A DNA stretch of 64,000 nt, from contig JBAQAF010000039.1 in NCBI GenBank assembly GCA_049285595.1, positions 6,373-70,372 of the forward strand. The letters are read 5' to 3'. The stretch is from Thermoplasmata archaeon (GTDB taxonomy: Archaea; Thermoplasmatota; Thermoplasmata; Lutacidiplasmatales; UBA184). Position numbers and translations under genes: made by a program. The notes beneath the pieces are model-generated. The model did no database searches and was not told the DNA's origin. It saw only the letters and a program-made list of their open reading frames with translations. Below, piece by piece: positions 34,627-53,441 of the stretch (its first letter is position 1; every line of letters begins with the position of its first letter).

Positions 34627-34634
34627 TTTAATAT
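34627..34634 (+). promoter_or_regulatory. Candidate TATA box (TTTAATAT)
   Basis: Lies about 35 nt upstream of ATG 34666. It is internal to the longer track ORF starting at 34600, which argues for the 34666 start. Confidence 0.35.
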
Positions 34635-34665
34635 CGACGCGCATTGGTCCGCGCTAGGTGGGCTC

Positions 34666-35805: not shown

Positions 35806-35830
35806 TCGGTTCGTGAGTCACACGAACTGT

Positions 35831-35883
35831 GGCCGGGGAGGGAAACCTCCCCGGCCAACCCTTTCCTTTCTTCTTCTTTTCTC
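35831..35883 (+). terminator. Hairpin plus pyrimidine/T-rich tract
   Basis: A perfect 11-bp stem, ggccggggagg (35831-35841) with cctccccggcc (35846-35856), closes the loop GAAA. It is followed by ctttcctttcttcttcttttctc. Confidence 0.5.
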
Positions 35884-36073
35884 AAATTAAGCGAGACTGC
35901 GTCGGGAGACACGGGAAGCCCTCGCCGGCTACAGGTTGTCGGCGACTCTAGGGCGGCGTTGAACGGTAGTCGCCGTCTCCCGAGACGCCCAACCCAAGGT
36001 CCACGAGCGGGCCAAAGAGCGGTTTCAGGGAACGGTGGGTGTCGCGCCCGATCGGCGCGTATAGAGAGCGACG

Positions 36074-36451
36074 TCAGGCGCGAGGGGGCGCACCGTAGGC
36101 GGGGGCACGGGTCGCGGAGGTGGAACTGCGGTGCTCGTCGACCGGCTCCCCTCCCTCCGCTTCCTCGGTCTCGTGGCGCTCCTGAGCGCACTCCTCTTCC
36201 GTCACCCAGTCGAATTCGACGTCTTCCGCGTGATCGTGGGAGATGAAGGCACCCGCTTCGAAAGCGGTCGAGATGATCTCCTCCATCTTCTCCGCCTCAT
36301 GGGTGCCGAACGACCCGACGAGCCGCCAGTACCAGTCCGGGGCCTTTCCCGCGGCCTGGAGGAACTCGGTAACGAGATCGTAGTAGGTCGTGTGCTGGTC
36401 GGTCAGATGGACGTGGAGATGGCGATCTCCTTGCGGTCCGGCCGGCGTCAC
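36074..36451 (-). CDS. Hypothetical acidic protein
   Basis: 125 aa with a GTG start and non-artefactual composition (D/E/H/W/Y/F present). No motif was recognised. Confidence 0.4.
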   Translation of the reverse strand: MTPAGPQGDRHLHVHLTDQHTTYYDLVTEFLQAAGKAPDWYWRLVGSFGTHEAEKMEEIISTAFEAGAFISHDHAEDVEFDWVTEEECAQERHETEEAEGGEPVDEHRSSTSATRAPAYGAPPRA

Positions 36452-36540
36452 GACCGTCCATGTCGGTGCCTGATATAATCCTCTCGGGTTGAATAACCCC
36501 GGACCGGCGGCGCGAGGCGCCGCGAACTCGGATCAGATCT

Positions 36541-36861
36541 TCAGTCGAACGCGGGATCGTCGGGGACAAGCTCCCGATAGTACCCGCCTTGGGGATCGTG
36601 GACGACGTCCGGTTCCCGGTAGCAGAGGATGCGCCAGGTGACGTAATCCTTCGGGCAGCGCGTGAACAGCATCCCGAGGATCGCGCCGACCAGCATGACG
36701 ACCCCGAGAAGGAGGAACAGATTGGAAAGGGGCACGATGCCGATGTGCGGGGCCGATGGGGAGAACCCGACCACGAGGAAGATGATCCCGAGCACGATCA
36801 TCGGCAGGTAGTGGAGGAAGATGTGGGTCGCTCGACCCGGGGCCGAAGTGGTCACCATCAT
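36541..36861 (-). CDS. Small membrane protein (2 TM)
   Basis: 106 aa with two hydrophobic segments, 'LPMIVLGIIFLVVGF' and 'LFLLLGVVMLVGAILGMLF'. Confidence 0.45.
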   Translation of the reverse strand: MMVTTSAPGRATHIFLHYLPMIVLGIIFLVVGFSPSAPHIGIVPLSNLFLLLGVVMLVGAILGMLFTRCPKDYVTWRILCYREPDVVHDPQGGYYRELVPDDPAFD

Positions 36862-37099
36862 GGACTACCCGACCCTCCCCACGACCCGGGAAGGGCGTCG
36901 GGGTTCATCCGCCTTTGCCCCGGTGGGGCTGCGACCGGCGACGGATCGCGCGGGGGCCGCCGCCGACCTTGCCTGTGATGAGTCTCTAGTCCCCTCGCAC
37001 CCGGGAATCGCCAGCCCGCCCACGGGAAACGTCCGGCAGCACTGCGGCGCCCACTTCCTGCCCGGGGACGGCCGGAGTGCCAGCGGCCGAAAAATGGCG

Positions 37100-37140
37100 T
37101 TATAATTACTATATAGCCTCAGACCCATCCCCGATATAGA
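37100..37140 (+). promoter_or_regulatory. AT-rich promoter region upstream of oppB
   Basis: 'ttataattactatatag' (37100-37116) and 'gatataga' (37133-37140) lie 45-85 nt upstream of ATG 37184. This is the most AT-rich stretch in the window. Confidence 0.4.
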
Positions 37141-37183
37141 GGCGGCACCGAGAGGTGCGGCTTCTACCGGGGGACAACGGGCC

Positions 37184-38476
37184 ATGCGGATGGTAACGTA
37201 TGTCATTCGTAGAGTGCTCCAGATCATTCCCGTGCTGATCGGGGTCGTCACCGTCACCTTCCTTCTATTCACCGCCCTCCCGCTCACCGACCAGATTCTC
37301 TCGCATTACGGAGCCCCCGGTCCCCACGCACCCTGCGGTTACCAGCCCTCCTGCCCCTGCTCGCAGTTGAACCCAACACAACATGGGTCGAGTTGCATCT
37401 GTAGCTACCCCACCGCACATACGGTGTCCCCATCAACCTATTGTGAGAACCAAATTTACTATCATGACGTCCACGCGTTGGGCCTGGACAAGCCCCTCCC
37501 GATCCAGTGGGCGAATTATGTGGTCCATAGTTTCACCTTCCGTTGGGGCTATGTTTCGAACAACAGTTTCATCGGTCAGAATATCCTAGGCATCAAAGGC
37601 CATAGCGTCGCGAGCGTCCTGGCGGGGTTCCTGCCGTACACGATCGAGCTCGCGATGTTGTCGCTCGCGCTGATCCTCGTCATAGCCATCCCCCTCGGAA
37701 ACGCTGCCGCCGTCAATCGGAACCGGCCGTTAGACCAGTCGGCGCGAGTGATGTCGTTCTCGGGCTTCGCCATCCCGGGGTTCCTCTTAGGGTCGCTTCT
37801 GGTCGCCGGTGTGACGCTCTTGTTCCTTCCCCATACGGGCGCCACGGTCGTCAGCCCGTGGTGCCGCGCGGGCGAAGCGATCGATCACGAATTCACCTAC
37901 TCCTGGCCGCAAAGCCCCGAATGCTACGTCGGTGCGAATACTCCCACCTTCCCGTATCACTTCCCACCGTGGATGCCCTACGGAACGACGACCTCCCCGA
38001 CCGGCTTCCCGACGATCGACGCGCTGATCCACCACAGCTACTGGCTCGCGCTCGACTCGCTCTTGAGAATGATTCTTCCAGCGCTGGTCATTGCCTACGG
38101 AACGATCGCGGGGTTGCTGCGATTCGTCCGGAACAGCATGCTCGAGGTGATGAACCTCGATTATGTCCGGACCGCCCGGGCGAAGGGAGTCCCCGAGAAG
38201 ATCGTGACCTCCAAGCACGCCGGTCGAAACTCCCTGAACGTGACCATCACGGTCTTAGGTCTCACCTTCGCGGGCTTTATCGGTGGATTCCCCGTGATTG
38301 AGGAGGTGTTTCATATCAACGGCGTCGGAGAGATGATCGCGTTGTCGATCCAGCAGCAGCTCGACTATGCGATGATCTTCGGGTCCACGATCCTGTTCAC
38401 GTACCTGGTCGTGGGCGCCAATATCATCGTGGACGTATTGTACGCCTATCTCGACCCCCGGGTCCGGCTGGGGTGA
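37184..38476 (+). CDS. oppB: Peptide/nickel ABC transporter permease (OppB/DppB-like) with a Cys-rich loop insertion
   Basis: 430 aa with the typical N-terminus 'YVIRRVLQIIPVLIGVVTVTFLLF' and the EAA-like region 'YVRTARAKGVPE'. An extra Cys-rich segment follows TM1. Confidence 0.85.
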   Translation: MRMVTYVIRRVLQIIPVLIGVVTVTFLLFTALPLTDQILSHYGAPGPHAPCGYQPSCPCSQLNPTQHGSSCICSYPTAHTVSPSTYCENQIYYHDVHALGLDKPLPIQWANYVVHSFTFRWGYVSNNSFIGQNILGIKGHSVASVLAGFLPYTIELAMLSLALILVIAIPLGNAAAVNRNRPLDQSARVMSFSGFAIPGFLLGSLLVAGVTLLFLPHTGATVVSPWCRAGEAIDHEFTYSWPQSPECYVGANTPTFPYHFPPWMPYGTTTSPTGFPTIDALIHHSYWLALDSLLRMILPALVIAYGTIAGLLRFVRNSMLEVMNLDYVRTARAKGVPEKIVTSKHAGRNSLNVTITVLGLTFAGFIGGFPVIEEVFHINGVGEMIALSIQQQLDYAMIFGSTILFTYLVVGANIIVDVLYAYLDPRVRLG

Positions 38477-38480
38477 AACA

Positions 38481-39713
38481 ATGGCGACTCCCACCGCCCC
38501 GGTTCCAAGCCTGACCCCCCGCCGTCGGCCGCATCCCCGGTTGGACCAGGCCAAACGTACTTGGTACTTCTTCCGTAGAAACACGCTGGCCCTCGTAGGG
38601 CTCGGGATCATCATCGCGATCGCGGGTATCGCGCTCTACTCGGCGACGCTGCCCCTCCCGTGGTCCACGCTTCCGGCGTATTGCGCCACGGATTACGGAC
38701 CGGGGAACCCAGCTTCCGGTTACCCCAACAACTACACTACGCACAACATCTGCCACACGGTCTGCACGTACGAGGTGGTGCCCCCGCCGAACCACGCCGC
38801 CGTCCCCGGGTGTAATGATCTTTGGTACAAAACTCCACTTTATGTGAACGGTACTCCCAAGATCTACGTCTCTTACGCCGGGGCGATCGCTCCGACCCTT
38901 CGGCTCTTCCCGGCGTTCTCGACCGGCCCATTACCGCTCGGGGGGCTGACCGAGTCGATCGGGGAAGAGACCCCGATCTATGATGTCGCGGGAGCGCTGG
39001 CCCGTGGGTCGGACTGGACGCTGATGCTCTCCCTGTCGATCGTGGGGCTGGGGGCTATCATCGGCCTCCTCACCGGGGCGATCGCGGGTTTCTACGGGGG
39101 GGTGGTCGACGACTTTTTGATGCGCTTCACGGACGTCTTCCTATCCATTCCAACGATCCTCTTCGTCATCGTCATGGTGACTGCGTTAGGGGCGATCATC
39201 CCCATCCACGGCCCCCTCGGGGCGGACATCAAGTTGATCCTCCTCATCGTTGGCTTCGTCCTGGTCTGGTGGCCGATCTACGCCCGCATCGTTCGGGGGC
39301 AGGTCCTCGTCGTGCGCGAACAGAAGTACGTCGAGGCGGCGAGGGCGTCGGGAGCCTCGAAAGGGCGGACCCTCCTTCGCCACATCATCCCCAACAGCAT
39401 GTATCCGATCTTCATCCAGTTCTCCTTGGACGTCGGGACCATCCCTCTCCTGATCGGCGCCCTGGTGTTCCTTGGCTTCGGGCCGGAGATGTTCCCGGCG
39501 GTGCCGTTCCCTGAGTGGGGATCGATCTCGGCGATCTCGGTCGCGGACCTCCCGATCGATATGCTCGGCTCCTGCCTCGTCCCGCACGGGCCGTGCATCA
39601 TCGCCTGGTGGCAGCTCCTGTTCCCGGGGCTCGCGCTCTTCTTCTTCGCGATCAGTGTCAACCTGCTCTCGGACGGGATCCGGGATTCGCTGGATCCGCG
39701 GCTGAGGCGGTAG
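38481..39713 (+). CDS. oppC: Peptide/nickel ABC transporter permease (OppC/DppC-like) with a large loop insertion
   Basis: 410 aa with 'YVEAARASGASKGRTLLRHIIPN' (EAA loop). A loop of about 120 aa containing 4 Cys follows TM1. Confidence 0.85.
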   Translation: MATPTAPVPSLTPRRRPHPRLDQAKRTWYFFRRNTLALVGLGIIIAIAGIALYSATLPLPWSTLPAYCATDYGPGNPASGYPNNYTTHNICHTVCTYEVVPPPNHAAVPGCNDLWYKTPLYVNGTPKIYVSYAGAIAPTLRLFPAFSTGPLPLGGLTESIGEETPIYDVAGALARGSDWTLMLSLSIVGLGAIIGLLTGAIAGFYGGVVDDFLMRFTDVFLSIPTILFVIVMVTALGAIIPIHGPLGADIKLILLIVGFVLVWWPIYARIVRGQVLVVREQKYVEAARASGASKGRTLLRHIIPNSMYPIFIQFSLDVGTIPLLIGALVFLGFGPEMFPAVPFPEWGSISAISVADLPIDMLGSCLVPHGPCIIAWWQLLFPGLALFFFAISVNLLSDGIRDSLDPRLRR

Positions 39714-39860
39714 GGGCGATCGATGACGTCGGCCGCAGGGTCCGGTAGCTATCCTTCCCCCGTATCTCGCAGGGTCCGACCGTCCGGCGGCCACCGGCCC
39801 CATCTTTTCTCCCGGAGCCGGCCCTCCCCGGCCCCGGCCGCCTCCCCCACCGCGTCGGCG

Positions 39861-41549
39861 ATGGCCCCCGCCCCGCCCTCCGACCGCGCGGCCCCCTCGC
39901 GGAGCACCGACCGGAATGTCGTGCTGGAGGTCCAGAATCTTAAGACCTATTTCTTCACGTACGACGGGGTCCTTCGGGCACTCGAGGGGATCAACCTCGT
40001 GGCGCGTGCCGGGGAGACCACGGGGATCGTAGGGGAGACCGGCTGCGGGAAGAGCGTCACCGCGTTCTCGATCGCCCGGCTCATCGGGGACCCCGGACGC
40101 GTCATGTCCGGAAAGATCTTGTTGAACGGGGCCGACCTACTCTGGGGGCTTGACAAGGAGGCGCGGTACAAGAAGATCACCGGTACCGGACGGGTCAAGG
40201 TCATCCGTTCGTTCCGCCGGATCAAGGCCGCCAACGAGCGGCTGGCCTCCGTTCGTGGGCGCGGCATTTCGATGATCTTCCAGGAGCCGGGGCAGGCGAT
40301 GAACCCGGTCTTCTCGATCGCCGACCAGCTCGGCGAGTCGGTCCTACTCCATCGGGGGATCGAGGTCGTGGAGGGGATGCTCCGCGCCGACGCGGCGGCA
40401 CGCGGGTCCGGGGGGGTGGCCAGTGAGGAGTTCGTCCCCGAGACAATGGACGGCAGCCCGGTCGAGATCCTCCCGGGAACGGGCGGGAACGTCGAGCGGA
40501 TGATCACGGTGGCCATGAGCGGCGATCGGGAGGGGCTCCGGGCGGCGGCCGAGGAGGTGGCGACGACCGCGGGGCTCCCGTCGCTCGCCCCCGAGCTGTT
40601 CTATTTGCTGCGGGAGTCGAAGGCGCAGGCGCCCGCCCGTCGCGTCCGGGTACGTCGGGCGATCCATCGCGTGCATCTGAGCGGAATGCAGCGGAAGTAC
40701 CTCCGGCATCAGCGGCGCGTGATGTTGATGCAGCGGGCGATCCAGGACCTCTACCTCAAGGAAATGAAGCTCGGCAAGTCGCAGCTCGGGGCCCGGAGTC
40801 GGATCGGGCTTCGCATCCGCCTCGAGCGGCTGCGCAACTTCTACTTCGGGGTGTGGGGCGTCAAGCGGCACGTCGCCCGCCCGATAAAGAACGAGCTGTT
40901 CTGGAGGGTGGTCGGGCTGCTCGAAGGCGTCCGGATCGCGAACCCCGTGCAGGTCGCTCGGGGCTATCCGCACGAGCTGTCGGGCGGCATGCTGCAGCGG
41001 GCGATGATCGCTATGGCGCTCTCCTCCGAACCGACACTGCTCATCGCCGACGAGCCGACGACCGCTCTCGACGTCACCATCCAGGCGCAGATCCTCGACC
41101 TGATGAACAAGCTGCGCGAACGGGTCGGGACGGCGATCGTGCTGATCACCCACGACCTCGGGGTCGTCGCCGAGGTGTGCGACCGAGTGAACGTGATGTA
41201 CGCGGGCCTGATCATCGAGAGCGGACCCGTCCACGAGCTGTTCCGCCGACCGCTGCACCCTTACACCCAGGGGCTGCTCGCCTCGATCCCTCGATTCGAT
41301 CAGCCGGACAAGGAGCTCGCGTCGATTCCCGGCTCGGTGCCGAACCTCATTCGGCCGCCCCCGGGCTGTCGCTTCCACCCGCGGTGCCCGTACGCCATGC
41401 CCGTCTGCAAGGAGGTCCGCCCCGAGCCCCAGATGGAAGGGGAGGACCACATGGTCGCCTGCCACCTCTACACCGCCCCTCCGGCCGCCCCCGCGGCTCC
41501 GGAACCGACCCCACCCCCGACCGTCGGAGGCCGCCCGGCGGCCGCATGA
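39861..41549 (+). CDS. oppD: Peptide ABC transporter ATP-binding protein (OppD-like) with large internal insertions
   Basis: Walker A 'GETGCGKSV', Q-loop '[11 protein letters not shown]', signature 'LSGGMLQR', Walker B '[12 protein letters not shown]', H-loop 'ITHDL' and the C-terminal oligopeptide domain 'GCRFHPRCP' are present. The start is ATG 39861 or track start 39723; the region between them is P/S/A-rich. Confidence 0.85.
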
Positions 41550-41718
41550 CCATTCCGGCAGATCGGGGCGCGCCGGGCGCGATCTCCTAGCCCGACCGTT
41601 CCCGGCGGCTCTCTCTTTTACGCCGAGGCGTTCTGGAGCTGGCCGAGGATCCCAGGCGGCGCGCGGAGACCCTGCGTCCCTCGCGGGCCACCGTGCGGGA
41701 ACCCTCGAGAAGAGAGGA

Positions 41719-43725
41719 ATGAGCGATCTCGACACCACCTGCGTCAACACGCTGCGCTTCCTTGCGGTCGACGCGGTCGAGGCCGCGAAATCCGGACACC
41801 CGGGATTACCGCTCGGCGCTGCGCCGATGGCGTACGTGCTCTGGGACCGGTTCTTGCGCCACCACCCGGCGAACCCCGCGTGGGCCAACCGAGATCGGTT
41901 CGTCCTCTCCGCGGGCCACGGCTCCGCGTTGCTCTACGCGCTGCTCCACGCCACGGGATACGACCTGCCGATCGACCAATTGCACCAGTTTCGCCAATGG
42001 GGCAGCCGCACCCCGGGCCACCCCGAGCACGGCCTGACCCCGGGGGTGGAGGCGACCACCGGCCCCCTCGGGCAAGGATTCGCGATGGGGGTCGGGATGG
42101 CGATCGCCGAGCGGCGGCTCGCGGCCGAGTTCAACCGCCCGGACCTGCCGATGATGGACCACCGCACGTACGGCATCGTCTCCGATGGCGACCTGATGGA
42201 GGGGATCTCCTCCGAGGCCGCCTCGCTCGCGGGGACCCTCGGTCTCGGCAAGCTGGTCTACCTCTACGACGACAATCACATCTCGCTCGAGGGGCCCACG
42301 GAGTGGGCGTTCACCGAAAGCGTGCCGCGGCGGTTCGAATCGTACGGTTGGCAGGTCCTCTCGGTCGCCGACGGCAACGACCTCGGGGCGATCGAGCAGG
42401 CGATCGGCGCCGCCTGCGCGGAGACCGCTCGGCCGAGCCTGGTAGCGGTCCGAACGCACATCGGGTACGGCAGCCCGGTGGCGGACTCCCGGGAGGCTCA
42501 CGGAGAGCCGCTCGGGCCGGCGAACCTGAAGGCGACGAAGGAGACCCTCGGCTGGCCGCTCGAGCCGACGTTCCGGTTCCCCGACGACGCGAAGGCTCAC
42601 TTTCGCCGGGCGCTCGATCGGGGCCGACAGTGGGAAGCCGAGTGGAACGAGCGACGCACGAACTACGCTTCCGCGCACCCGGAGCTGTCGGCCGAATTCG
42701 ATCGCCGGCTCCAGGGAGCGCTCCCGAGAGGCTGGGACACAGGGCTCCCCTCCTTCCTTCCCAAGGACGGACCCATCGCCACCCGGGACGCCTCCCAGAG
42801 ATCGATCAACGGCCTCTCCGCGACGCTCCCCGGCCTCGTCGGCGGTGCGGCGGACCTCTCCCCGTCGACGAAGACGGTGATCGCCGGATCGCCCGATTTC
42901 TCCGCGCACGAGGCGGGAGGGCGCAACTTCCACTTCGGCGTGCGCGAGCACGCGATGATCGCGATCATGAACGGGATGGCGTTGCACGGAGGGGTTCTGC
43001 CGTACGGCGGGACGTTCCTGACGTTCTCGGATTACGCGCGCGGGTCGATCCGGCTCGCCGCCCTTCAGCAGACGCACGTCGTCCTCGTGTTCACCCACGA
43101 CAGCATCGCCATGGGGGAGGACGGCCCGACCCACCAACCGATCGAGCAGCTCGCGAGCCTGCGGGCGGTCCCCGGATTGACGGTGATCCGCCCGGCGGAC
43201 GCGAACGAGACGAGCGCGGCGTGGCGGCTCGCCGTGACGCGGCGCGGCCCGACCGCCCTGGTCCTGACCCGTCAAAAGATACCCGTGCTCGACTCCGCCC
43301 AGTACCCGATCGCCGCCGGAGTCCCCCGCGGGGGCTACATCCTCGCGGAGCCGGCGTCCGGGGCCCCCGCGGTCGTTCTGCTCGCGACGGGCTCCGAAGT
43401 GTCGATCGCGCTCGACGCCCAACGACTGCTGGCCGCTCAGGGTGTCGGCGCCCGCGTCGTGTCGCTCCCCTCCTGGGAACTGTTCGAGGCGCAGGACGTC
43501 GCGTACCGGAACGGAGTGCTCCTCCCCGGAGTGCCGAAGGTCTCCGTCGAGGCGGCCTCCAAGTTCGGGTGGGATCGATACGTAGGACCCAACGGAGAGT
43601 CGATCGGCCTGGACGGGTTTGGCGCCTCCGCTCCTGGCCCGGTAGTGATGCGGGAGCGCGGCATCACCGCGGAGCACATCGTCCGGGCCGCACTGCGCTG
43701 GTCGGGGCGGGGCGCGCGCCCATGA
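41719..43725 (+). CDS. tkt: Transketolase (full-length, single polypeptide)
   Basis: 668 aa with 'SGHPGLPLG' and '[18 protein letters not shown]'. Confidence 0.95.
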
Positions 43726-45383
43726 TCCTGATCGACCCCGGGTCGTCGGCGCTTGGGCCGGATTCCGCCCCGGTCGCCGCGCGACTTCGAGATTGGGACC
43801 GGGACCGGGTCGCCGAGCGACTCTGGGCGGCCGACCCGACGCTCTGGCCGAACGCACCGGCCGCGGATGTCGCTAACCGCACCGGCTGGCTCGCCTTGCC
43901 CGAACAGATGCGATCCGAGGTCCCAGGACTCCGGTCGTTCGCCGAGGGGGTCCGCGCGGACGGAACTCGGCACGTCGTCCTGCTCGGCATGGGGGGTTCG
44001 AGCCTGGCTCCCGATGTCCTGCGACGGATGTACGGACCCCGACCCGGCTTTCCGGAGATGATCGTCCTCGACAGCACGCATCCGGACGCCGTGCGGGGCG
44101 TCCGGGACCGGATCGACCCGGCGCGTTCGTTGTTCGTCGTCTCGAGCAAGTCCGGCACCACCACCGAGCCGCTCGATTTCTATCGGTTCTTCCGGAACGC
44201 GGTCGAGAACGCCCGCGTCGACCCGAGCCCCCACTTCGCGGCCGTTACCGATCCGGGCTCGCCGCTCGACGGCCTGGCGACGAAGGAACGGTTCCGAACG
44301 GTCTTCCGCGCAGTGTCGACCGTAGGGGGACGCTACTCGGCGTTGACGATGTTCGGGCTCGCTCCCGCGGCCCTCCTTGGCGTCAACCTCGACGAACTGC
44401 TCGCCCGCGCCGGACGGATGGCGGACGCGTCGGGTGCCACGGTCCCGGCGACGGCCAACCCGGGACTCTCGCTGGGGGCGGCCCTCGGAGAGGTCGCCGC
44501 CCGGGGTCGCGACAAACTCACGATGTACGCGGGCCCCTCGGTCGGAGCGTTCCCGATCTGGGCCGAGCAGCTCGTCGCCGAGAGCACCGGAAAGGAGGGG
44601 CGGGGGATCGTGCCGGTGGTCGGGGAGCCGTTCGCCGCTCCCGCGACGTACGGCAACGACCGTCAGTTCGTGGAGTTACAGTCGACCTCAGCGCCCGACG
44701 CGCAGCTCGCGGCGCACACAGCACGTCTCGAAGCGGCCGGGCATCCGGTCCTTCGCTTCTCCCTGGGCGAGACGGCCGACGTCGGTCAGGAGTTCTTCCG
44801 CTGGGAGGTCGGGGTCGCCCTCGCGGGGGCGATCCTCGGGATCAACCCATTTGACCAGCCCGACGTGGAGCTGGCCAAGCAGCTCGCCCGCGCGGCGATG
44901 GCGCGACCTGCCGGCCCTGCCGCGTCGCCCGAGGTGCGGGAAGAACGTATCGGCGAGGGCCCGGCCCTCACCGACGCGCTCGCGCGATGGCTCGGGTCTG
45001 CCCGACCGCGCGACTACGTCGCTCTCCAGGCGTACGTCGCGCCGACCGAACCGGTAAGCGCGGCGCTCGACGCGCTCCGTCAGGTCCTTCTTGCGCGCAC
45101 GCGTCTCGCGACAACCGTGGGTTTCGGACCGCGCTTCCTTCACTCGACCGGTCAGCTCCACAAGGGAGGCCCCAACACAGGACTGTTCCTCCAGATCGTC
45201 GACACGCCGGCCGCCGATCTCGAGGTTCCGGGCGCGGGGTACACCTTCGGTCAGTTGATCCATGCCCAATCTCTCGGAGATTACCAGGCGCTCCAGCAGA
45301 AGGGCCGCCGAGTGCTTCGCGTCCAGTTGGGCACGGACGTGGCGGCGGGCTTGGAGAAGCTCACCGAGGCGTGTCGTGGCTGA
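43722..45383 (+). CDS. pgi: Glucose-6-phosphate isomerase (type found fused to transaldolase in some bacteria)
   Basis: The ATG at 43722 (ATGA overlap with tkt) gives 553 aa. 'DPTLWPN...NRTGWLALP', '[13 protein letters not shown]' and '[13 protein letters not shown]' (SIS domain) are present. Confidence 0.8.
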
Positions 45384-45990
45384 GGTGGCGGCGCTCCTCT
45401 GGGATGTGGGCGGAGTGATCCTATCGAACGGATGGGATCACGAGGGACGACGGGCCGCGGCAGCCCACTTTGAGCTAGACGCCGCGGAGCTTGAGCGCCG
45501 GCACGCGGGGCTCGCCCGTCCTCTCGAGACCGGAGGGATCGATTGGGCCCAGTACCTGTCGGAGACCGTATTCTTCGCCCCCCGGCCTTTCTCCGTGGAG
45601 GAGTTCCGGCGCTTCGTCTGGGAGCGGTCGACCCTCAACGCGCCGGCGTTCGATACTGCGCGCTCCCTTCGCCGGTCGGAGCGGTACGTCCAGGTCGCGC
45701 TGAACAACGAGTCCCGCGAGCTCAACGAGTATCGCATCGCCCGGTTCCGCCTCGGCGAGCTGTTCCACGCGTTCCTGAGTTCGTGCTACACGGGTCGTTT
45801 GAAGCCGGAGCCGGAGGCATTCCTCTTCGCGCTGGATCTGCTCCAGCGAACTCCCGAGGAGTGCCTGTTTCTCGACGACCGCCCCGAGAATATCGCCGGA
45901 GCGGCCGCGGTCGGGCTCCGAACGTTGCTCGTCGGGTCGGGCGATCAACTCCGAGAAGACCTCTTGGCGGCCGGCGTATCTCTGGAGTGA
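45376..45990 (+). CDS. HAD-superfamily hydrolase (subfamily IA-like)
   Basis: The GTG at 45376 gives 204 aa. Motif I is 'LLWDVGGVI', with 'FLDDRPENI' as motif IV-like. The substrate is unknown. Confidence 0.7.
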   Translation: MAEVAALLWDVGGVILSNGWDHEGRRAAAAHFELDAAELERRHAGLARPLETGGIDWAQYLSETVFFAPRPFSVEEFRRFVWERSTLNAPAFDTARSLRRSERYVQVALNNESRELNEYRIARFRLGELFHAFLSSCYTGRLKPEPEAFLFALDLLQRTPEECLFLDDRPENIAGAAAVGLRTLLVGSGDQLREDLLAAGVSLE

Positions 45991-46001
45991 AGGAGTCGAC
46001 G

Positions 46002-46910
46002 ATGGAAGTGGGAATGGTCGGGTTGGGGAAGATGGGCGGCAACATGACGGTACGACTCGTGAAGGCCGGCCATCGGGTCGTCGGGTTCGCCCGGGCGAAG
46101 CCGGTCGTAGACGCTGTGGTTCGGCAGGGGGCCATCGGGGCCGACTCGCTCGCGAGCCTGGTCGGCCAGCTCGCGAAACCCCGCGTGGTCTGGCTGATGA
46201 TCCCGTCCGGCGCCCCGGTAGATCAGACCCTGGAGGCGCTCCACCCCCTGCTCGCCCCCGGGGACCTGATCGTGGACGGCGGGAACTCCTACTACAAGGA
46301 CACCCTACGACGGGCGGCCCAGGTGAACGGCTGGGGGTTCTCCTACGTCGATGTGGGCACGAGCGGTGGCGTGTGGGGATTGACCGAGGGGTACTCGATG
46401 ATGGTCGGGGGCTCGCCGGCCGACGTCGAAAGGATCCGGCCGCTTCTTGTCGCCCTCGCTCCGGGCCCGGACCGGGGGTGGGGCCGCGTCGGAGCCGTCG
46501 GCTCGGGCCACTTCGTCAAGATGGTCCACAACGGGATCGAGTACGGTCTAATGGAGGCGTACGCCGAAGGGTTGGCCGTTCTCGGGGCGAAGACCGATTT
46601 TGCGCTCGATCTCCACCAGGTCACGCAGATCTGGCGCTACGGGAGCGTCGTGCGATCCTGGCTGCTGGAGCTGACCGAGGCCGCGCTCGCGGAGAACCCG
46701 ACCCTCAGTGGCATCGAGCCGTGGGTCGCGGACTCCGGCGAGGGGCGGTGGACCGTGACCGAGGCGCTCGACCTCAACATCCCCGCGCCCGTGATCACCC
46801 TCGCGCTCCAGCAACGGTTGCGTTCACGCGAAACGAACCCGTTCGCCGAGCGTCTCCTCGCGATGATGCGCAACAAGTTCGGGGGCCACGCCATCAAAGA
46901 GGCACCGTAG
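46002..46910 (+). CDS. gnd: 6-phosphogluconate dehydrogenase, short (about 300 aa, decarboxylating-like) form
   Basis: The ATG at 46002 is preceded by AGGAG and gives 302 aa. 'MVGLGKMGGNM' is the Rossmann motif, and 'GGNSYY' and 'GSGHFVKMVHNGIEYG' are present. Confidence 0.85.
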   Translation: MEVGMVGLGKMGGNMTVRLVKAGHRVVGFARAKPVVDAVVRQGAIGADSLASLVGQLAKPRVVWLMIPSGAPVDQTLEALHPLLAPGDLIVDGGNSYYKDTLRRAAQVNGWGFSYVDVGTSGGVWGLTEGYSMMVGGSPADVERIRPLLVALAPGPDRGWGRVGAVGSGHFVKMVHNGIEYGLMEAYAEGLAVLGAKTDFALDLHQVTQIWRYGSVVRSWLLELTEAALAENPTLSGIEPWVADSGEGRWTVTEALDLNIPAPVITLALQQRLRSRETNPFAERLLAMMRNKFGGHAIKEAP

Positions 46911-46912
46911 CC

Positions 46913-48376
46913 ATGGACCGCCCGACCGTCGAACCCCACCTGTTCATCGTCTTCGGCGCGACGGGCGATCTGATGCAGCGCAAGCTGCTCCCCGCGCTCT
47001 ACCGGCTGCGAGAGCGGGGAGAGTTCCCTGCCGGCAGCGTGATCTTGGGGGTAGCACGCCGGCCGATGGACGACGCCTCCTTCGGGGCCGCCGCGGTGGA
47101 GTGGCTCACGGCCGAGAAGATCGCGCCCGAGGAGACGCTCCGAGCGTTCGCCGGGACGACGCTCGCCTACCACCGACTTGAGGACGAATCGCCCGAGAGC
47201 TTCGTTCGCCTGCGCGACGCGATCGCCGCCCTCGAGAGTGCGCGCGGGCTGGGAGGCGACCGGATCTTCTATCTCGCGCTTCCCCCCGAGGCGCTCCGAT
47301 CGACGTTGGACGGTCTGGGCGGCGCGGGGCTGGCCGCGGGGCCGGGATGGACCCGCGTCGTGGTGGAGAAGCCGTTCGGGCGGGACCTCGCCTCCGCCCA
47401 GGCGCTGAACGCAGCGCTGCACGCCCACTTCACAGAGAGCCAGGTCTATCGGATCGACCACTACCTTGGTAAGGAGACGGTCCAGAACCTCCTCGTCTTC
47501 CGCTTCGCGAACATGTTCGTCGAATCGCTCTGGAATCGCGAGCGGGTCGAGCGCGTCGAGATCACCGTCGCCGAGAGCCTCGGCATCGAGGGTCGTGCGG
47601 CGTACTACGAGACGTCCGGGGCGCTGCGCGACATGATCCAGAACCATGTGACCCAGGTCCTCACGCTGGTCGCGATGGAGCCGCCCGCGACCCGCACGGA
47701 AGAGGCGGTCCGGAACGAGAAGGTGAAGGTCCTCCGAAGCATCGCCCCTATCGGCGTCGACGACGTCGTGCGCGGCCAGTACGCGTCGGGCACGGTCGCC
47801 GGCGCCCCGGTCCCCGGCTATCTCGCGGAGCCCGGGGTCGCCGCCGGCTCCACGACCGAGACGTACATCGCGCTCCGCCTCCGGGTGACGAACTGGCGAT
47901 GGCAGGGGGTCCCGTTCTTCCTGCGGTCGGGGAAACGACTCCCGGCGAAATCGAGCCGGGTCGTCCTGACGCTCAAGGCGCCGCCGGTGTCGTTCTTCCC
48001 GACCGATCAGGAGTACGAGATGAACCCGGACCGGATCTCGATCCTGATCCAGCCCGAGGAAGGGTTCGAGATCGCCTTCGAGATCAAGGTGCCGGGCCGC
48101 GAGCTGAAGGTGCAGACGCACCGCATGAAATTCCATTACGCCGACGTCTTCGGGCCGCTCCCCGACGGGTACGAGACCCTCCTGCTCGATGCGATGCTGG
48201 GCGACCCCACTCTGTTCGTCCGGGCCGACGAAGTAGAGGAGTCCTGGCAGGTCTACGACTCCGTCCTGCAGCATCCTCCGGCGCTCGCACCGTACGCCGC
48301 CGGGTCGTGGGGACCCGAGGCAGCCGAGCGGCTGGCGGAGCAGTGGGGGCACCGCTGGTGGGACGAGTCGGCCTAG
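46913..48376 (+). CDS. zwf: Glucose-6-phosphate 1-dehydrogenase (bacterial/eukaryotic Zwf family)
   Basis: The ATG at 46913 gives 487 aa. 'FGATGDLMQRKL' and the family signature 'RIDHYLGKETVQN' are present. Confidence 0.9.
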   Translation: MDRPTVEPHLFIVFGATGDLMQRKLLPALYRLRERGEFPAGSVILGVARRPMDDASFGAAAVEWLTAEKIAPEETLRAFAGTTLAYHRLEDESPESFVRLRDAIAALESARGLGGDRIFYLALPPEALRSTLDGLGGAGLAAGPGWTRVVVEKPFGRDLASAQALNAALHAHFTESQVYRIDHYLGKETVQNLLVFRFANMFVESLWNRERVERVEITVAESLGIEGRAAYYETSGALRDMIQNHVTQVLTLVAMEPPATRTEEAVRNEKVKVLRSIAPIGVDDVVRGQYASGTVAGAPVPGYLAEPGVAAGSTTETYIALRLRVTNWRWQGVPFFLRSGKRLPAKSSRVVLTLKAPPVSFFPTDQEYEMNPDRISILIQPEEGFEIAFEIKVPGRELKVQTHRMKFHYADVFGPLPDGYETLLLDAMLGDPTLFVRADEVEESWQVYDSVLQHPPALAPYAAGSWGPEAAERLAEQWGHRWWDESA

Positions 48377-48384
48377 CGCCCGAC

Positions 48385-49131
48385 GTGCGCCGCTTCCGGG
48401 ACCTCGCCGCGGCAAGCCGCGCGCTGGCGGAGCACGTCGTCGAGCGGGCGCAGGAGTCGGTGGCCGAGACCGGCTCCTTTCGAGTAGTGCTCTCGGGCGG
48501 GCGGACGCCTCTCGGACTGTACCGGATCCTCGCCGACCCCGCCGCTTCCCAGGTCCCCTGGCCCCAGACGCACGTCTTCTTCGCGGACGAGCGGTGCGTC
48601 TCGCCGCGATCTCCCGATAGCAATTACCGGGCCATTCGGGACGCGCTCCTCGACCACGTGCCGATCCCCCGGGCGAACGTCGTGCGGATCCGCGGGGAGC
48701 TCCGTCCGCCGTCCGTGGCGGCCGCAGAGTATAGCCGCCGGCTGGGTCCGGACACGAGAGGATCGCGAGGGCCCCGGTTCGACCTGGTGCTCCTCGGCAT
48801 CGGGCCGGACGGTCACACCGCGTCCCTTTTCCCGGGCGAGCGAGCGCTCGTCGCCCGCCGAGGCCGCGCGGTGAGCGTCGCCGAGGCCGGGGTCGAGCCG
48901 TTCGTTCCTCGAGTGACGATGACGCTGCCGACGCTCGCTTCCTCCTCCGAGGTCTGCTTCCTTGTCGCGGGATCCGACAAGTCCCGCGCGGTCGCTCGGA
49001 TCCTCTCGCTACGCTCTAACGGGAGACATCCCCTGCCCGCAGCCCGAGTTCGTTCGCGAGGGCCGGTCCGGTGGTTTCTCGACCGAGCGGCTGCGGCGGG
49101 TCTCTCCCGCGGTTCGACCGCGATTCGTTAG
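48385..49131 (+). CDS. pgl: 6-phosphogluconolactonase
   Basis: The GTG at 48385 gives 248 aa. 'VVLSGGRTP', 'FFADERCV' and 'LLGIGPDGHTASLFP' are present. Confidence 0.8.
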   Translation: MRRFRDLAAASRALAEHVVERAQESVAETGSFRVVLSGGRTPLGLYRILADPAASQVPWPQTHVFFADERCVSPRSPDSNYRAIRDALLDHVPIPRANVVRIRGELRPPSVAAAEYSRRLGPDTRGSRGPRFDLVLLGIGPDGHTASLFPGERALVARRGRAVSVAEAGVEPFVPRVTMTLPTLASSSEVCFLVAGSDKSRAVARILSLRSNGRHPLPAARVRSRGPVRWFLDRAAAAGLSRGSTAIR

Positions 49132-49937
49132 GATCGGGAGCGCGCCCGACCCGAGGAGCTCTTCGGCCGCGGGCCGACCGGCTCTGCCTCCGGGGAGGCG
49201 GAGCGGCCCGACGGAGTCTGCCAGGCGCGGATACCCCCGAGAAACGCGTTACGATTGTCCCCGCGGTGGGCCCCGGGCGGAAGCTTCTGCAACCGGCGGA
49301 CATTGCCGCCTCCCACGACCACATAGTCCGGCTCGAGGGCCGTCTCGAGCATGTCGATCACGGCGAACACCTCCTTCTGCCACCGCTTCTTTCCTTCGCG
49401 ACGGCGGGCGTCTTCCCCCACGAACTCCTCGAACGTCTTCCCCTTGCGGTACGGCAAGTGCGCGAGCTCCATCGGCTGAAGGACCCCGTCCACGATCATC
49501 GCCGACCCGAGGCCCGAGCCGAGCCCGAGAAAGAGCATGCTCCCGCCGCGATACGATCCCAGCGCCTGCATCGCGGCGTCGTTGAGGATTCGCGTCGGGT
49601 GGCGCAGCGCCCGTGAGAAATCGAAGCCGACCCATCCCTTCCCGAGATGATAGGGCTCTCGAGTGATCGTTCCTCGCCGGACGAGCCCCGGGTATCCGAT
49701 GGTGACTCGCTCGAACCGCTCACCTCGAACCGCTCGGTTGATCTCGCGCACCATCCGCGCCGGGGTCATCGTCGGACCGGAAGGGAACCGGACGCGTCGG
49801 CCCGGTCCGTGGGAGAACGCCACCTTCACGTGGGTCCCTCCTACGTCCACGACGAGAATTCTAGAGTCCGTCCGCGCGCCCGGCGACATGACGATCACCC
49901 CCACCCCGCGAGAGGCTAAAAGTTCGGAAGGGGCCAA
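49128..49937 (-). CDS. ROK-family glucokinase (polyphosphate/ATP glucokinase-like)
   Basis: 269 aa with 'LVVDVGGTHVKVA', 'ILNDAAMQALG' and 'LGLGSGLGSA'. Its stop overlaps the pgl stop convergently by 4 nt. Confidence 0.8.
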   Translation of the reverse strand: MAPSELLASRGVGVIVMSPGARTDSRILVVDVGGTHVKVAFSHGPGRRVRFPSGPTMTPARMVREINRAVRGERFERVTIGYPGLVRRGTITREPYHLGKGWVGFDFSRALRHPTRILNDAAMQALGSYRGGSMLFLGLGSGLGSAMIVDGVLQPMELAHLPYRKGKTFEEFVGEDARRREGKKRWQKEVFAVIDMLETALEPDYVVVGGGNVRRLQKLPPGAHRGDNRNAFLGGIRAWQTPSGRSASPEAEPVGPRPKSSSGRARSRS

Positions 49938-50024: not shown

Positions 50025-53000
50025 TTAGGCAGCCTCGCGACCCGAGACGGTCGCGACGAGTCCCGCGTGGCTCGCGAGCGCGGTAGACAACCGTGTGACC
50101 GCCGGCCCGAACGACTGGTGTTCGGGGGCGAAGGTCACGTGGATCGTCTGCGCGTGCGGCGTGTGCGACGGCAGGACGGGGGCCACCACGATCGGGGACG
50201 CGGGAGCTCCCGTGCCCGTGTCGCCGCCGACCACCGGGATGGTGTACGTGTACGTCCCGTTGGGCAGCTCGAACTTGATCGTGGCCGACGTGCTGCTCAG
50301 GGTGATTGGCGATCCTGGCACCGGGCCGGTCACCGTAACGGACCAGCTCGTGTGCGCCGCCAACCCGTGCTCGCTGAAGGTGATCGCCCCGGCGTTAAGC
50401 TTGAACTTAATCGCCTTGTTCACCGTGACGCTACCGACCGACAGACCGCCGTGGGCCGGAGCAGCGTCGTAGATCGCGGGCTTTGTCACTTCATACTTGT
50501 ACGGGGTACCCTTGGCGATGGTGAACGTCACGGTGCTGCCCGTGGTCGTGGCCGCCGAGCCGGCCGGGCCGCCCGTCCCCGACGGAACCAGGGTGATGCC
50601 CCAGGTCGTCAGAGCCGGCAGTCCGGGCCACGGTACGGACGTCACTTCGTTGAAGTTCACCGTCTGCAGCTTGCCGAAGTGCAGGGTAATGGTCGTGGTC
50701 GCAGAGATCGGGGCCGATCCGTAGAGCGTCCCGTGGGGTCCCGTCACCTTGGCGAGTCCGTAGCCCGCAGGCGCGGTCACGGTGAAGTCCAACGTCCCGT
50801 TGGGGGCGTTGAAGGGCACCGAGGTCGCAGGTCCCGTCACGTTCGCGGACGTCTTTTCGGTCGAGGGAGAGCCCGCGGTCACCGTGAACGCGGTGCCGGC
50901 ACCCGCCGTGATGCCCGACTCCTTGAACGTCACCGACTGTTCGAACGGAACGTAGCGGACCTGGAACCAGACCGCATCGCCACCGCCGCCGATCATGACG
51001 TTCGTGTTCAGGGAGCTCGGGTCAATCCACGGAGCCGCCGAGGAGACGGCGTTCGCCTGGCCGTTCCACACGTACATCCCCAAGGCGTTGGTGATGTGCG
51101 TGATCAGGTTGTAGTCGAGCGTCCGGTCCGGTCCTACTGGCAATCCCGCCGCGATGCCCATCCAGTTCACCGCGACCGTGTAGGCGACTCCCTGGCACTG
51201 GGTGGTCAGGCGGCCCAGAGCGGGGTTGTCGACAGAGTGGGCCCAGTAGTCGAGGTCCTGGATCGTCGAGCCGTAGTGGCCGCACGCCGAGATGTTAGCG
51301 CTCGTCTGGGTGCCTTCGCCAACCATTCCCGAGAAGGCATCCGCCGCCGTGTAGGTGGCGTTCGGGCCAACCTCGGGGACGGTGTAGTCGGTCGGGTCCG
51401 GATAGTCCGGAGCCCAGCCCGAGCCCGTCTCGGAGATCAGGGGGTTGGTGCCGGGCGCGTTGAAGGCGATGTCCAGGAACTGGTCGAAGGTCAGGTCAAA
51501 GGTGTACGGCGCAAGCGCGCCACCCGTGATCGTGGTGATCTCCGCCATCCAGTCCGCAATCGCGGCGTCATCACTCGGATCTGCGTCGAGACCCGCGATC
51601 GGGAACGTGCACGGAGTCGCATGCGAGCACGAAGCGAGCTGCGGATCGTAGTAGGACGAGATCGGGTTATTCGCCTGGGCCCACCACCACGCGGAGCCAC
51701 CGACATCCGACGGGTTCAGGTCAGGGTCCGTGTTCGGGAATGACACGTTCGTCGGGTAGTAGTTCCCGAGACCGACGGGAATCGCGCCACCCGCATTGAA
51801 GTCGAACTGGATACCGTCGACAGTCCGGATGGTGTTCTCGACCGTGGTGTAGGGGTAGGCCTCGACGTAGAACTCACGCAGTGCCGGGTTGGTGAAGAAG
51901 TTCACCGGGATGTTGGGCAGGGGCTCCGACGGGAAGTAGGTCGAGAATTCGGACGGGCTCCATCGGAGGTTGACCGGCGTGAAGAACTGCGTAATGGTCG
52001 GGTTGATAAAGTAGTTCAGGTCGCCCTCGGACGCCAGCAGCTTCAGCGTCGTCGTGTGCGCCGCCTCGATGCCGGCAAAGTCCGCGATGTGCGCCCGATA
52101 CTGGCTGATGCCGAACGAGTCGTCGGGCTCCCAATAGACCTGGACGTTGTGGATGAACGCGCTCGGCGCGGGGTCGCAGTAGCCACCATACGTCGCCGCG
52201 ACACCAACGCCCGAGCAGCCACCGGGCTGCAGGTACGCGGGGTTCTCAGCGAGCGTGTAGCCTGCGCCGGGGATGACACCCGCGTAGTACGGGCCGGATC
52301 CGACCATGTTCCACTGAACACCGCCATCGACGATCGGCGAGGTGACGGCCGTCTCTTCGAACGAGTCCCACGAGAGGGGGTCTACGCCCGCCAGGTATGC
52401 CGCCCACGCTGAGCTGTCGGTCGAGGTGATCAGGTGGCCCGGGGTGCTGCCCGGGAGTCCGCAGGGACCGTCCCCGTGGGACGCCCCGAAGTTCGCGAAG
52501 CCCGGCATCGCGGCGCCTTCATACGAGAACCAGCCGCACGGCTCAACGCTCGCGCCGAGGTTGTCCGCCACCAGCTGCAGGAAGTAGGGCCAGTCAGATC
52601 CCCCACCGTTTGCGACGAAGGTGACGCAACCGTGTTCGTTAGCGATCGCCGACGCCGGACAGTAGGCCGTCGAGTTGACGAGCATCGAGCTCAGGATGCT
52701 GTTGGCCGTGGTATTGAACGGGTAGTGAAGGCCACCGTCGTAGACGGGGCTTCCGTACTGGAGCAGCGACTGCGCCTGGATCCAGCCCGGGTTCTTCCCG
52801 ACGTAGGGAACTTCCGAGAAGGCCAGCGTCCGCGCTAGGCTGAACATGACGTCCGACGGGTAGACTCCCCAGGACGCGTGCGTGGTCGGGTCGTAGAACG
52901 AGGCTTGCTTGTCGATGACAAACGTCCAGTAGATCGGCTCACCCGCAAAGGGTCCGGCGCCGTCAGCGACCAGGCTGGAGCCGTAGTCGGACGTGCACTG

Positions 53001-53441
53001 AGCGTCGCCCGGAACGCAGGTCGCCACCGTGGGAACGAACGTCGTCGTCGAGTTCCCATTGTAGTTGACCAGCGTCTGGTAGACGTTGATGATCGGCTCG
53101 TAGCTCACCGTGTCGTACGCAATGGACGGGTCTTCAGAATTGGAGCCCCCCGGTGCCACTTCGTAGACATCAAGTGTGCCTGCGTGTGGCGAGTGGGGGG
53201 ACGCTTCAATCGCCCCGCCTACTGGTACGGCCGATGCGGTCGTCTGCTGGACGGCTGCCCCCTGCGCACCAGTGGTATGCGTTACCACCGGTGCGGCAGG
53301 CGTAACCGACGCGGCGCTCAAGGCGCCGGCGGCGACGGGCAACGCCATGCTCAAAACGAGCACGAACGTCGCGGCAATGACTGCCGTCCGTCTTGTCGCA
53401 ATCTCTCCCACCGAATAAGACCCTCCCGGCAATTGGGTCAC
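50025..53441 (-). CDS. ABC transporter substrate-binding protein (family 5, peptide/nickel type) with a long C-terminal repeat extension
   Basis: 1138 aa with a GTG start, the signal/TM 'AVIAATFVLVLSMALPVAAGA' and an SBP5-like core ('YDTVSYEPIINVYQTLVNYNG'). The last 330 aa or so are repeated beta-sandwich modules ('VTFKESGITAG', 'ITFSEHGLAAHTSWSVTVTG', 'LPNGTYTYTI'). Confidence 0.8.
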   Translation of the reverse strand: MTQLPGGSYSVGEIATRRTAVIAATFVLVLSMALPVAAGALSAASVTPAAPVVTHTTGAQGAAVQQTTASAVPVGGAIEASPHSPHAGTLDVYEVAPGGSNSEDPSIAYDTVSYEPIINVYQTLVNYNGNSTTTFVPTVATCVPGDAQCTSDYGSSLVADGAGPFAGEPIYWTFVIDKQASFYDPTTHASWGVYPSDVMFSLARTLAFSEVPYVGKNPGWIQAQSLLQYGSPVYDGGLHYPFNTTANSILSSMLVNSTAYCPASAIANEHGCVTFVANGGGSDWPYFLQLVADNLGASVEPCGWFSYEGAAMPGFANFGASHGDGPCGLPGSTPGHLITSTDSSAWAAYLAGVDPLSWDSFEETAVTSPIVDGGVQWNMVGSGPYYAGVIPGAGYTLAENPAYLQPGGCSGVGVAATYGGYCDPAPSAFIHNVQVYWEPDDSFGISQYRAHIADFAGIEAAHTTTLKLLASEGDLNYFINPTITQFFTPVNLRWSPSEFSTYFPSEPLPNIPVNFFTNPALREFYVEAYPYTTVENTIRTVDGIQFDFNAGGAIPVGLGNYYPTNVSFPNTDPDLNPSDVGGSAWWWAQANNPISSYYDPQLASCSHATPCTFPIAGLDADPSDDAAIADWMAEITTITGGALAPYTFDLTFDQFLDIAFNAPGTNPLISETGSGWAPDYPDPTDYTVPEVGPNATYTAADAFSGMVGEGTQTSANISACGHYGSTIQDLDYWAHSVDNPALGRLTTQCQGVAYTVAVNWMGIAAGLPVGPDRTLDYNLITHITNALGMYVWNGQANAVSSAAPWIDPSSLNTNVMIGGGGDAVWFQVRYVPFEQSVTFKESGITAGAGTAFTVTAGSPSTEKTSANVTGPATSVPFNAPNGTLDFTVTAPAGYGLAKVTGPHGTLYGSAPISATTTITLHFGKLQTVNFNEVTSVPWPGLPALTTWGITLVPSGTGGPAGSAATTTGSTVTFTIAKGTPYKYEVTKPAIYDAAPAHGGLSVGSVTVNKAIKFKLNAGAITFSEHGLAAHTSWSVTVTGPVPGSPITLSSTSATIKFELPNGTYTYTIPVVGGDTGTGAPASPIVVAPVLPSHTPHAQTIHVTFAPEHQSFGPAVTRLSTALASHAGLVATVSGREAA

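Follow-up and report, generated by a model that had tools for sequence, protein, structure and literature searches.

An archaeon of the Lutacidiplasmatales carries a gene cluster for a bacterial-type oxidative pentose-phosphate pathway. The cluster lies in a stretch of 64,000 nucleotides from Thermoplasmata archaeon (assembly GCA_049285595.1, contig JBAQAF010000039.1, positions 6,373 to 70,372 of the forward strand), which is called the window here and whose own numbering is used for all coordinates. It occupies positions 41719-49937 and is composed of six same-strand genes, tkt-pgi-HAD-gnd-zwf-pgl, and one convergent gene for a ROK-like kinase, all of which were confirmed. The cluster is very likely a bacterial operon that was taken up as one piece by the ancestor of the Lutacidiplasmatales and that afterwards descended vertically, was repeatedly lost and merged with native pentose genes. 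An earlier note on this DNA had proposed both the bacterial character of the module and its transfer between domains. Both proposals hold: four of the enzymes score above equivalog cut-offs in a genome whose 16S is archaeal, and the genes are nested among bacterial sequences, share the gene order of bacterial clusters and are nearly absent from other Thermoplasmatota. The newness that the note implied does not hold in full, because a supplement (PMC9287336) has already stated that this order acquired zwf and gnd.

Gene content of the cluster

Identities were assigned by profile searches with curated equivalog cut-offs, which tkt, gnd, zwf and pgl exceed. The first gene, tkt (41719-43725, forward strand), codes for a full-length bacterial-type transketolase of 668 aa, a single polypeptide with the three Pfam transketolase domains (N-terminal, pyrimidine-binding and C-terminal) that passes the model for full-length bacterial transketolases (TIGR00232, 845 bits; cut-off 682) and is 54-59% identical to bacterial transketolases, versus 32-37% to the native split archaeal enzymes of its relatives. 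It is followed by pgi (43722-45383, forward strand), which codes for a glucose-6-phosphate isomerase (PGI) of 553 aa. A bifunctional transaldolase-PGI is known from bacteria (NF007080); membership of this family takes both domains and more than 712 bits, and the window protein matches model positions 393-944 only, with 638 bits, which is the PGI part alone. It lies outside the bifunctional family and is predicted to work as its PGI half. The third gene (45376-45990, forward strand) codes for a predicted HAD-IA phosphatase (PF00702 and TIGR01509, above cut-off), a conserved member of the operon, whose closest structure is an uncharacterised structural-genomics entry, a 'hydrolase family protein' (PDB 3cnh, E 1.7e-45), and whose homologues, 40-44% identical, adjoin gnd or zwf in three Acidobacteriota loci (L072, L064 and L076).

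The next gene, gnd (46002-46910, forward strand), encodes a decarboxylating 6-phosphogluconate dehydrogenase that matches both NF007161 (430 bits; cut-off 271) and TIGR00872 (346 bits; cut-off 297). The short type of this enzyme is recognized by a score above cut-off, a length of about 300 aa and a C-terminal domain truncated in comparison with the 470-aa type, and the window protein has 302 aa and a 6PGD domain that covers only profile positions 1-116 of 290. Its closest structures are short 6-phosphogluconate dehydrogenases (6vpb, 6xeq and 4e21, with 332-358 aa), and the signature VKMVHNGIEYG is intact. The two matching models carry the names of different cofactors. After strand beta-2 the window protein reads F-A-R-A where 6vpb reads F-D-R-D, so that an Asp is absent and an Arg is kept, a hint of NADP preference that is based on the N-R-T motif of NADP-type enzymes.

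The fifth gene, zwf (46913-48376, forward strand), codes for a canonical glucose-6-phosphate dehydrogenase (TIGR00871, 550 bits; cut-off 401) that contains both domains, G6PD_N (PF00479, 188 bits) and G6PD_C (PF02781, 363 bits). The motifs GATGDL (dinucleotide binding, GxxGDL), EKPFG and RIDHYLGKE (with the catalytic His) are present and are invariant in an alignment of 22 sequences. The last gene of the series, pgl (48343-49131, forward strand, with a probable GTG start at 48343), codes for a 6-phosphogluconolactonase (TIGR01198, 210 bits; cut-off 124), in whose translation the motif GxDGHxAS(L)FP is present as LLGIGPDGHTASLFPG and the catalytic signature GPDGHTASLFPG is intact. The profile searches thus leave the families of zwf and pgl as they had been assigned.

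The convergent gene (49128-49937, reverse strand) encodes a ROK-like sugar kinase, whose start is most likely the ATG at 49889 (253 aa), as in the gene call of the closest relative. The name ROK glucokinase, given to it previously, stands at the family level: the match to the ROK profile is marginal (PF00480, 23.9 bits; cut-off 22.9) and the N-terminal DVGGT (the ATP-binding DxGGT) is present. The more specific part of the name does not fare as well, because the zinc-binding cysteine motif is typical of ROK glucokinases and the 269-aa translation has no cysteine, and because the nearest structure is likewise an uncharacterised structural-genomics entry, a 'putative kinase' (PDB 3lm2, E 1.2e-74), followed by the polyphosphate/ATP glucomannokinase 1woq (E 5e-12). 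The protein also falls below the cut-off of the polyphosphate-glucose phosphotransferase family (NF045942, 75 versus 250 bits). The gene is kept beside the cluster in members of the family (Lutacidiplasmatales) at 57-63% identity.

Within the cluster, tkt and pgi overlap in an ATGA, pgi and the HAD gene overlap by 8 nt, and the spacings from HAD to gnd and from gnd to zwf are 11 and 2 nt; with the GTG at 48343 as its start, pgl shares 34 nt with zwf, in agreement with the gene call of the closest relative. The 3' ends of pgl and the kinase gene share the four nucleotides TTAG at 49128-49131, the stop overlap that had been described before. The reported absence of OpcA is also borne out, since the overlap of zwf and pgl leaves no room for opcA between them and no further ORF with a family assignment is found in the operon. 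Upstream of tkt there is an intergenic region of 169 nt (41550-41718, forward strand) with AGAGAGGA directly 5' of the ATG, which is presumed to contain the promoter and the ribosome-binding region of the operon.

Bacterial origin of the operon

Among the matches listed, the closest Zwf sequences from outside the family are 45-52% identical to it, and the named ones are bacterial (Terriglobia, Rhodothermales/Salinibacteraceae, Actinomycetota, Gemmatimonadota and cyanobacteria), with the exception of one Nitrososphaeria genome. A comparison of gene order in 80 loci showed that the arrangement tkt-tal-pgi-gnd-zwf-pgl is common in bacteria, where it is found in Salinivenus, Dormibacterota, Chloroflexota and Gaiellaceae. 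The family is monophyletic in the trees of the single genes, with Shimodaira-Hasegawa-like approximate likelihood ratio test (SH-aLRT) values of 98 for gnd and tal, 94 for pgl, 89 for zwf, 88 for pgi and 73 for tkt. In a concatenated Gnd+Zwf tree it is again monophyletic (98) and nested in a clade (100) with Gemmatimonadales, Bacteroidota and Salinibacteraceae. The nearest neighbours vary with the gene: Salinivenus alone for tal, Salinivenus and the Nitrososphaeria archaeon for pgi, Salinibacteraceae, Gemmatimonadales (L102), Bacteroidota (L047) and Terracidiphilus for gnd, and Acidobacteriaceae first and then Salinivenus for tkt. The recipient clade is therefore nested within the diversity of the donor domain and the genes are rare in the recipient domain, which is what is expected of an inter-domain transfer.

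Presence in the family is patchy. zwf is found in 101 of the 180 species genomes (about 56%), 94 of them above cut-off, in six of the seven genera and in 40 of 67 high-quality genomes; the remaining 79 species genomes (about 44%) have no match. Full-length Tkt is found together with Gnd and Zwf in the same genomes. A sample of 16 genomes that belong to the order and class but to other families yielded no zwf, and in an even sample of 401 Thermoplasmatota genomes, about 390 of them outside the family, Zwf rises above the cut-off in only two genomes that do not belong to it. These two proteins (L035 = G261:C33 and L022 = G102:C15, from other families) are about 39% identical and lie on long separate branches, so they are probably independent acquisitions.

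Some assemblies with few contigs (G007:C2:1968270-1970235; G572, G576, G580, G581 and G464) carry tkt or zwf split into two or three adjacent pieces or with a stop, and these broken copies reflect either decay toward loss or frameshift errors of long reads. The Nitrososphaeria archaeon MFD03726.bin.1.205, with 42% GC, has adjacent genes for a GFO/IDH/MocA oxidoreductase, pgi and zwf (L038:6927-11464). In the trees, Pgi and Zwf of this genome group with those of the Lutacidiplasmatales in one bacterial-archaeal clade, and the pair may be a separate acquisition.

Host genome, age of the transfer and rival histories

The source genome (1.77 Mb in 62 contigs, 68.4% GC, 95% complete) is archaeal by its 16S fragments, which score 792 bits with the archaeal model versus 555 bits with the bacterial one. 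All seven genes of the cluster have their nearest non-family relatives in bacteria, as a bacterial contig misbinned into an archaeal genome would, and yet the chance of such an artefact is practically nil: the window also encodes thermopsin, an archaeal-type D-aminoacyl-tRNA deacylase (DTD) and a tRNA-Glu, the composition of the cluster is typical of the genome, and zwf is carried by the 101 family genomes mentioned above. Three assemblies that are independent of one another have this layout, on contigs 45-139 kb long, and in related genomes the contigs around the cluster reach 2.3 Mb. Contigs of GCA_022749935.1 and GCA_022750355.1 encode Zwf proteins with 69-71% identity to that of the window; both accessions come from the same series as the type genome of Lutacidiplasma, GCA_022750295.1, and this genus has been described from acidic soils with about 69% GC and about 2.1 Mb (PMC9287336). 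Contamination was therefore rejected.

The position of the cluster had suggested a block inserted between opp genes. On its left lie oppB, oppC and a fused oppD/F ATPase gene (37184-41549, forward strand; Pfam BPD_transp_1, OppC_N, ABC_tran and oligo_HPY), and on its right a gene for a secreted protein of 1138 aa without Pfam match (50025-53441, reverse strand), which may be a stalked, divergent peptide-binding protein of the opp type. A recent insertion between the transporter genes and the gene for this binding protein would agree with the different neighbourhoods that the cluster has in other family members and with the atypical composition of the left flank, but it is very improbable and is largely refuted. 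GC content at third codon positions (GC3), codon usage and tetranucleotides had been proposed for a comparison with the flanks; measured against the whole genome, the left flank (the opp/thermopsin part) is atypical and the cluster is not. The cluster has 69.5% GC, in tetranucleotides it lies nearer to the genome mean than 96% of equal-sized windows do (4th percentile of distance), and the GC3 and codon scores of its seven genes lie between the 22nd and 88th percentiles. A compositional anomaly, expected for recent transfers only, is thus absent from the cluster by GC, tetranucleotides, GC3 and codon scores, and the host-like composition indicates an old, ameliorated transfer. The cluster sequences moreover form one clade across the family, with 55-89% identity, and this clade follows the species tree. 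The layout oppB-oppC-oppDF-tkt-pgi-HAD-gnd-zwf-pgl-kinase is common only to the closest relative, GCA_035499455.1 (Zwf 89% identical), and no opp genes are found within 10 kb of the cluster at ten other family loci, so that the opp context is a species-group-specific placement and not the original insertion scar; at most it reflects a translocation within the genome in this species group.

The atypical stretch itself (33500-41718) contains a gene for a thermopsin-type protease, a 401-aa ORF without family and oppB/C/DF, and has 64.3% GC (7th percentile) and a tetranucleotide distance at the 92nd percentile. The 1138-aa protein has a 52% identical paralogue beside another opp ATPase gene in the source genome (G000:C24:24792-27959), and its C-terminal repeats resemble those of many other surface proteins of this genome. 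When the flanks of the cluster in another family member (G011) were compared with eight other family loci and with the source genome, none of these loci had them in common, and in the source genome they were spread over three contigs, so that no ancestral empty site can be defined from this comparison.

Vertical descent with a constant gene order is what is seen within the family, as in the deep archaeal clade that the earlier note had set against a transfer; the family as a whole is nested among bacterial sequences. The same three groups (g15+g17; G215, G022 and G023; and the core of the genus) come out of the tree of EF-2 and that of Gnd+Zwf, which differ in the position of the root alone. 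The simplest reading of these data is that the family ancestor gained the cluster once and that repeated losses followed. Several points weigh against it. The species tree was built from the single marker EF-2 by quick searches. Presence and absence are interleaved within the genus on this tree, with at least four changes forced by well-supported branches, and the close genomes G001 and G020 differ in presence, which together with the variable context would also fit transfer within the family. A quick tree of a second Zwf sample gives the monophyly of the family a support of only 49 and places two well-supported subclades and bacteria in one polytomy, within a clade whose own support is 100; this leaves room for two acquisitions as far as Zwf alone is concerned. 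Similarity to Zwf decided which bacteria were compared, so the closest relatives of the remaining cluster genes may be too thinly sampled, and the trees leave the donor phylum ambiguous. The absences, finally, come from metagenome-assembled genomes, in which some apparent losses may be assembly gaps.

The interleaved distribution, the difference between G001 and G020, the non-conserved flanks, the Zwf-only tree that does not resolve the base of the family and the Nitrososphaeria genome with a related pgi-zwf pair would all be accommodated by a mobile metabolic module that spreads within the family and between soil archaea and bacteria, its patchiness being due to repeated gains. This is unlikely, given that no integrase, transposase or flanking repeat is seen next to the cluster, that the same three major groups appear in the cluster and EF-2 trees, that basal lineages have the cluster and that genes missing from metagenome-assembled genomes inflate the absences. 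A somewhat better, though still doubtful, chance may be given to the idea that the operon is a distinct shared soil module that moved from bacteria to archaea more than once, in which the HAD phosphatase and the cysteine-free kinase would be functional, uncharacterised parts of the pathway. As one joint proposal, it would count as recipients the Lutacidiplasmatales and possibly the Nitrososphaeria lineage with the related pgi-zwf pair, and the unrelated zwf genes of two other Thermoplasmatota families would point to further independent gains; the phosphatase and the kinase might, as a pair, control how much glucose-6-phosphate is available, or else the phosphatase might remove a phosphorylated by-product with an inhibitory effect on Gnd. 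A single ancestral acquisition of the whole operon, followed by vertical descent and loss, remains the preferred explanation.

Sorting of native and acquired genes

The earlier note had described the PGI as being of the type fused to transaldolase, and it is literally fused in sister genomes: relatives encode a transaldolase-PGI of 918 aa (L161:4715-7471 and L162:2670-5426, both in Lutacidiplasmatales genomes). A separate transaldolase gene in these relatives was considered and rejected, because by the gene calls as well as by the reading frame tal and pgi are one fused gene. The window PGI aligns without gaps, at 65% identity, to residues 369-918 of the fused protein of GCA_022749935.1, and this match to the PGI half only implies that about 1.1 kb of transaldolase-coding DNA was deleted in this species group. 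The claim that transaldolase is missing is therefore right for the window and wrong for the genome, which has a short gene of the TAL_FSA type on another contig (C8:17691-18317).

The transketolases were sorted in the opposite direction. Every genome that lacks the cluster, in the family and in other families, has a split archaeal tkt in two adjacent genes of about 270 and about 310 aa, in accordance with the statement that archaea typically have a split or absent transketolase, and several genomes with the cluster hold both forms. The native locus, in which X denotes a conserved gene, reads rpiA ... X-tktN-tktC-talS in three related genomes (G001, G003 and G011). In the source genome X (C8:16620-17600) is directly followed by the short transaldolase gene (C8:17682-18329), and a split transketolase was not found anywhere in this genome. 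To judge from this comparison of loci, the native tktN and tktC were cleanly deleted and the acquired full-length Tkt displaced the split enzyme, and the native short transaldolase outlasted the acquired transaldolase domain.

A genus member without zwf and gnd (L152, G008:C28:4114-8221) has, in addition to the native split tkt, another kind of full-length tkt (59% identical) with a long transaldolase gene (44% identical) behind it; this pair may be another separate acquisition.

Proposed pathway

The flow of carbon, the enzyme activities, the use of cofactors and the direction of flux are predicted here from gene content. The ROK-like kinase would turn glucose into glucose-6-phosphate with ATP or polyphosphate as donor, Zwf would oxidize it to 6-phosphogluconolactone, Pgl would hydrolyze the lactone to 6-phosphogluconate and Gnd would decarboxylate the latter to ribulose-5-phosphate. 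Rpe and RpiA, encoded elsewhere in the source genome (on C24 and C8, respectively), would interconvert the pentose phosphates, and the acquired Tkt together with the native short transaldolase would return carbon to fructose-6-phosphate and glyceraldehyde-3-phosphate. The PGI of the operon would then convert fructose-6-phosphate to glucose-6-phosphate, so that the pathway could cycle and yield reduced nicotinamide cofactor. Seen in this way, acquired and native enzymes together form a mosaic pathway. What the HAD phosphatase and the kinase would do in it is proposed from their position only.

In bacteria, Zwf and Pgl serve both the oxidative pentose-phosphate and the Entner-Doudoroff routes, and they could in principle feed the latter here. 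This use is exceedingly improbable and was rejected, because searches of the 95%-complete genome detected neither Edd (TIGR01196) nor an aldolase of the Eda type (PF01081) and because gnd is present, between the HAD gene and zwf in the same operon. Gnd is thus the only encoded fate of 6-phosphogluconate. Outside the window the source genome also encodes HxlA (214 bits; cut-off 200) and an HxlB-like protein (140 bits; cut-off 160). The main benefit of the operon is probably the supply of NADPH to an aerobic heterotroph, because pentoses can also be obtained by means of the genes of the ribulose-monophosphate (RuMP) route and of the non-oxidative branch.

Comparison with known systems

The bacterial clusters of Salinivenus sp. 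(L075), Dormibacterota (L042 and L092), Chloroflexota (L057 and L098) and Gaiellaceae (L093) contain the same gene families in the same order as the archaeal cluster, including a PGI of the type fused or adjacent to transaldolase and a Gnd of the short type, and the five genes shared with Salinivenus are 51-61% identical. In many bacterial clusters zwf and pgl lie about 1.1-1.3 kb apart, with OpcA presumably encoded in the interval, whereas in the window these two genes overlap. The window also differs from the OpcA-assisted Zwf systems of cyanobacteria and actinobacteria, in which opcA adjoins zwf. With respect to the bacterial clusters, the archaeal version adds the HAD phosphatase and the convergent ROK-like kinase, and in the version in the window the transaldolase domain has been lost.

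The gain of zwf and gnd was assigned to the last common ancestor of the Lutacidiplasmatales by Sheridan et al. 2022 (PMC9287336, Supplementary Note), in one sentence that derives from the reconciliation of gene trees with the species tree; the main text of that paper is silent on the pathway. The lineage and the genes are the same as in the window, and the contigs of GCA_022749935.1 and GCA_022750355.1 carry the cluster. That gain is therefore already known. What is new, and not in that paper, is the transfer of the whole seven-gene operon, its synteny with and nearest relatives in bacteria, the fused transaldolase-PGI and its truncation, the displacement of the split tkt and the presence in about 56% of the species. 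Abundant archaea of acid soils with a bacterial oxidative pentose-phosphate pathway show how the aerobic heterotrophy of Thermoplasmatota was assembled from bacterial genes. The result is of use for the annotation and metabolic models of soil archaea and as a tidy example of xenologous displacement, and it opens no new question. A further and likewise doubtful idea, separate from that of the soil module, is that the 180 species of the family keep every intermediate stage of the replacement of the split tkt and would constitute a natural series for the study of pathway displacement.

A survey of 2015 detected glucose-6-phosphate dehydrogenase in 66% of the bacterial genera and in 0% of the 83 archaeal genera that it covered (PMC4518329). 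The glucose-6-phosphate dehydrogenase of Haloferax is a non-homologous short-chain dehydrogenase, described as of archaeal origin (PMC12525153); in the haloarchaeal system glucose-6-phosphate is likewise oxidized to ribulose-5-phosphate, with a Gnd, whereas in the window a canonical bacterial Zwf and a Pgl take that place. An oxidative pentose-phosphate pathway has also been inferred from metagenome-assembled genomes of Hodarchaeales and Kariarchaeaceae (bioRxiv 10.1101/2024.07.04.601786), aerobic archaeal lineages like the Lutacidiplasmatales but of a different phylum (Asgard), and the likeness is drawn here at the level of the reported pathway. The archaeal non-oxidative branch, composed of split tkt and short transaldolase, is together with the RuMP enzymes HxlA and HxlB the native state of the relatives of the family. 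The source genome keeps the short transaldolase, RpiA, Rpe, HxlA and the HxlB-like protein; its split tkt is deleted, and the acquired Tkt must substitute for it.

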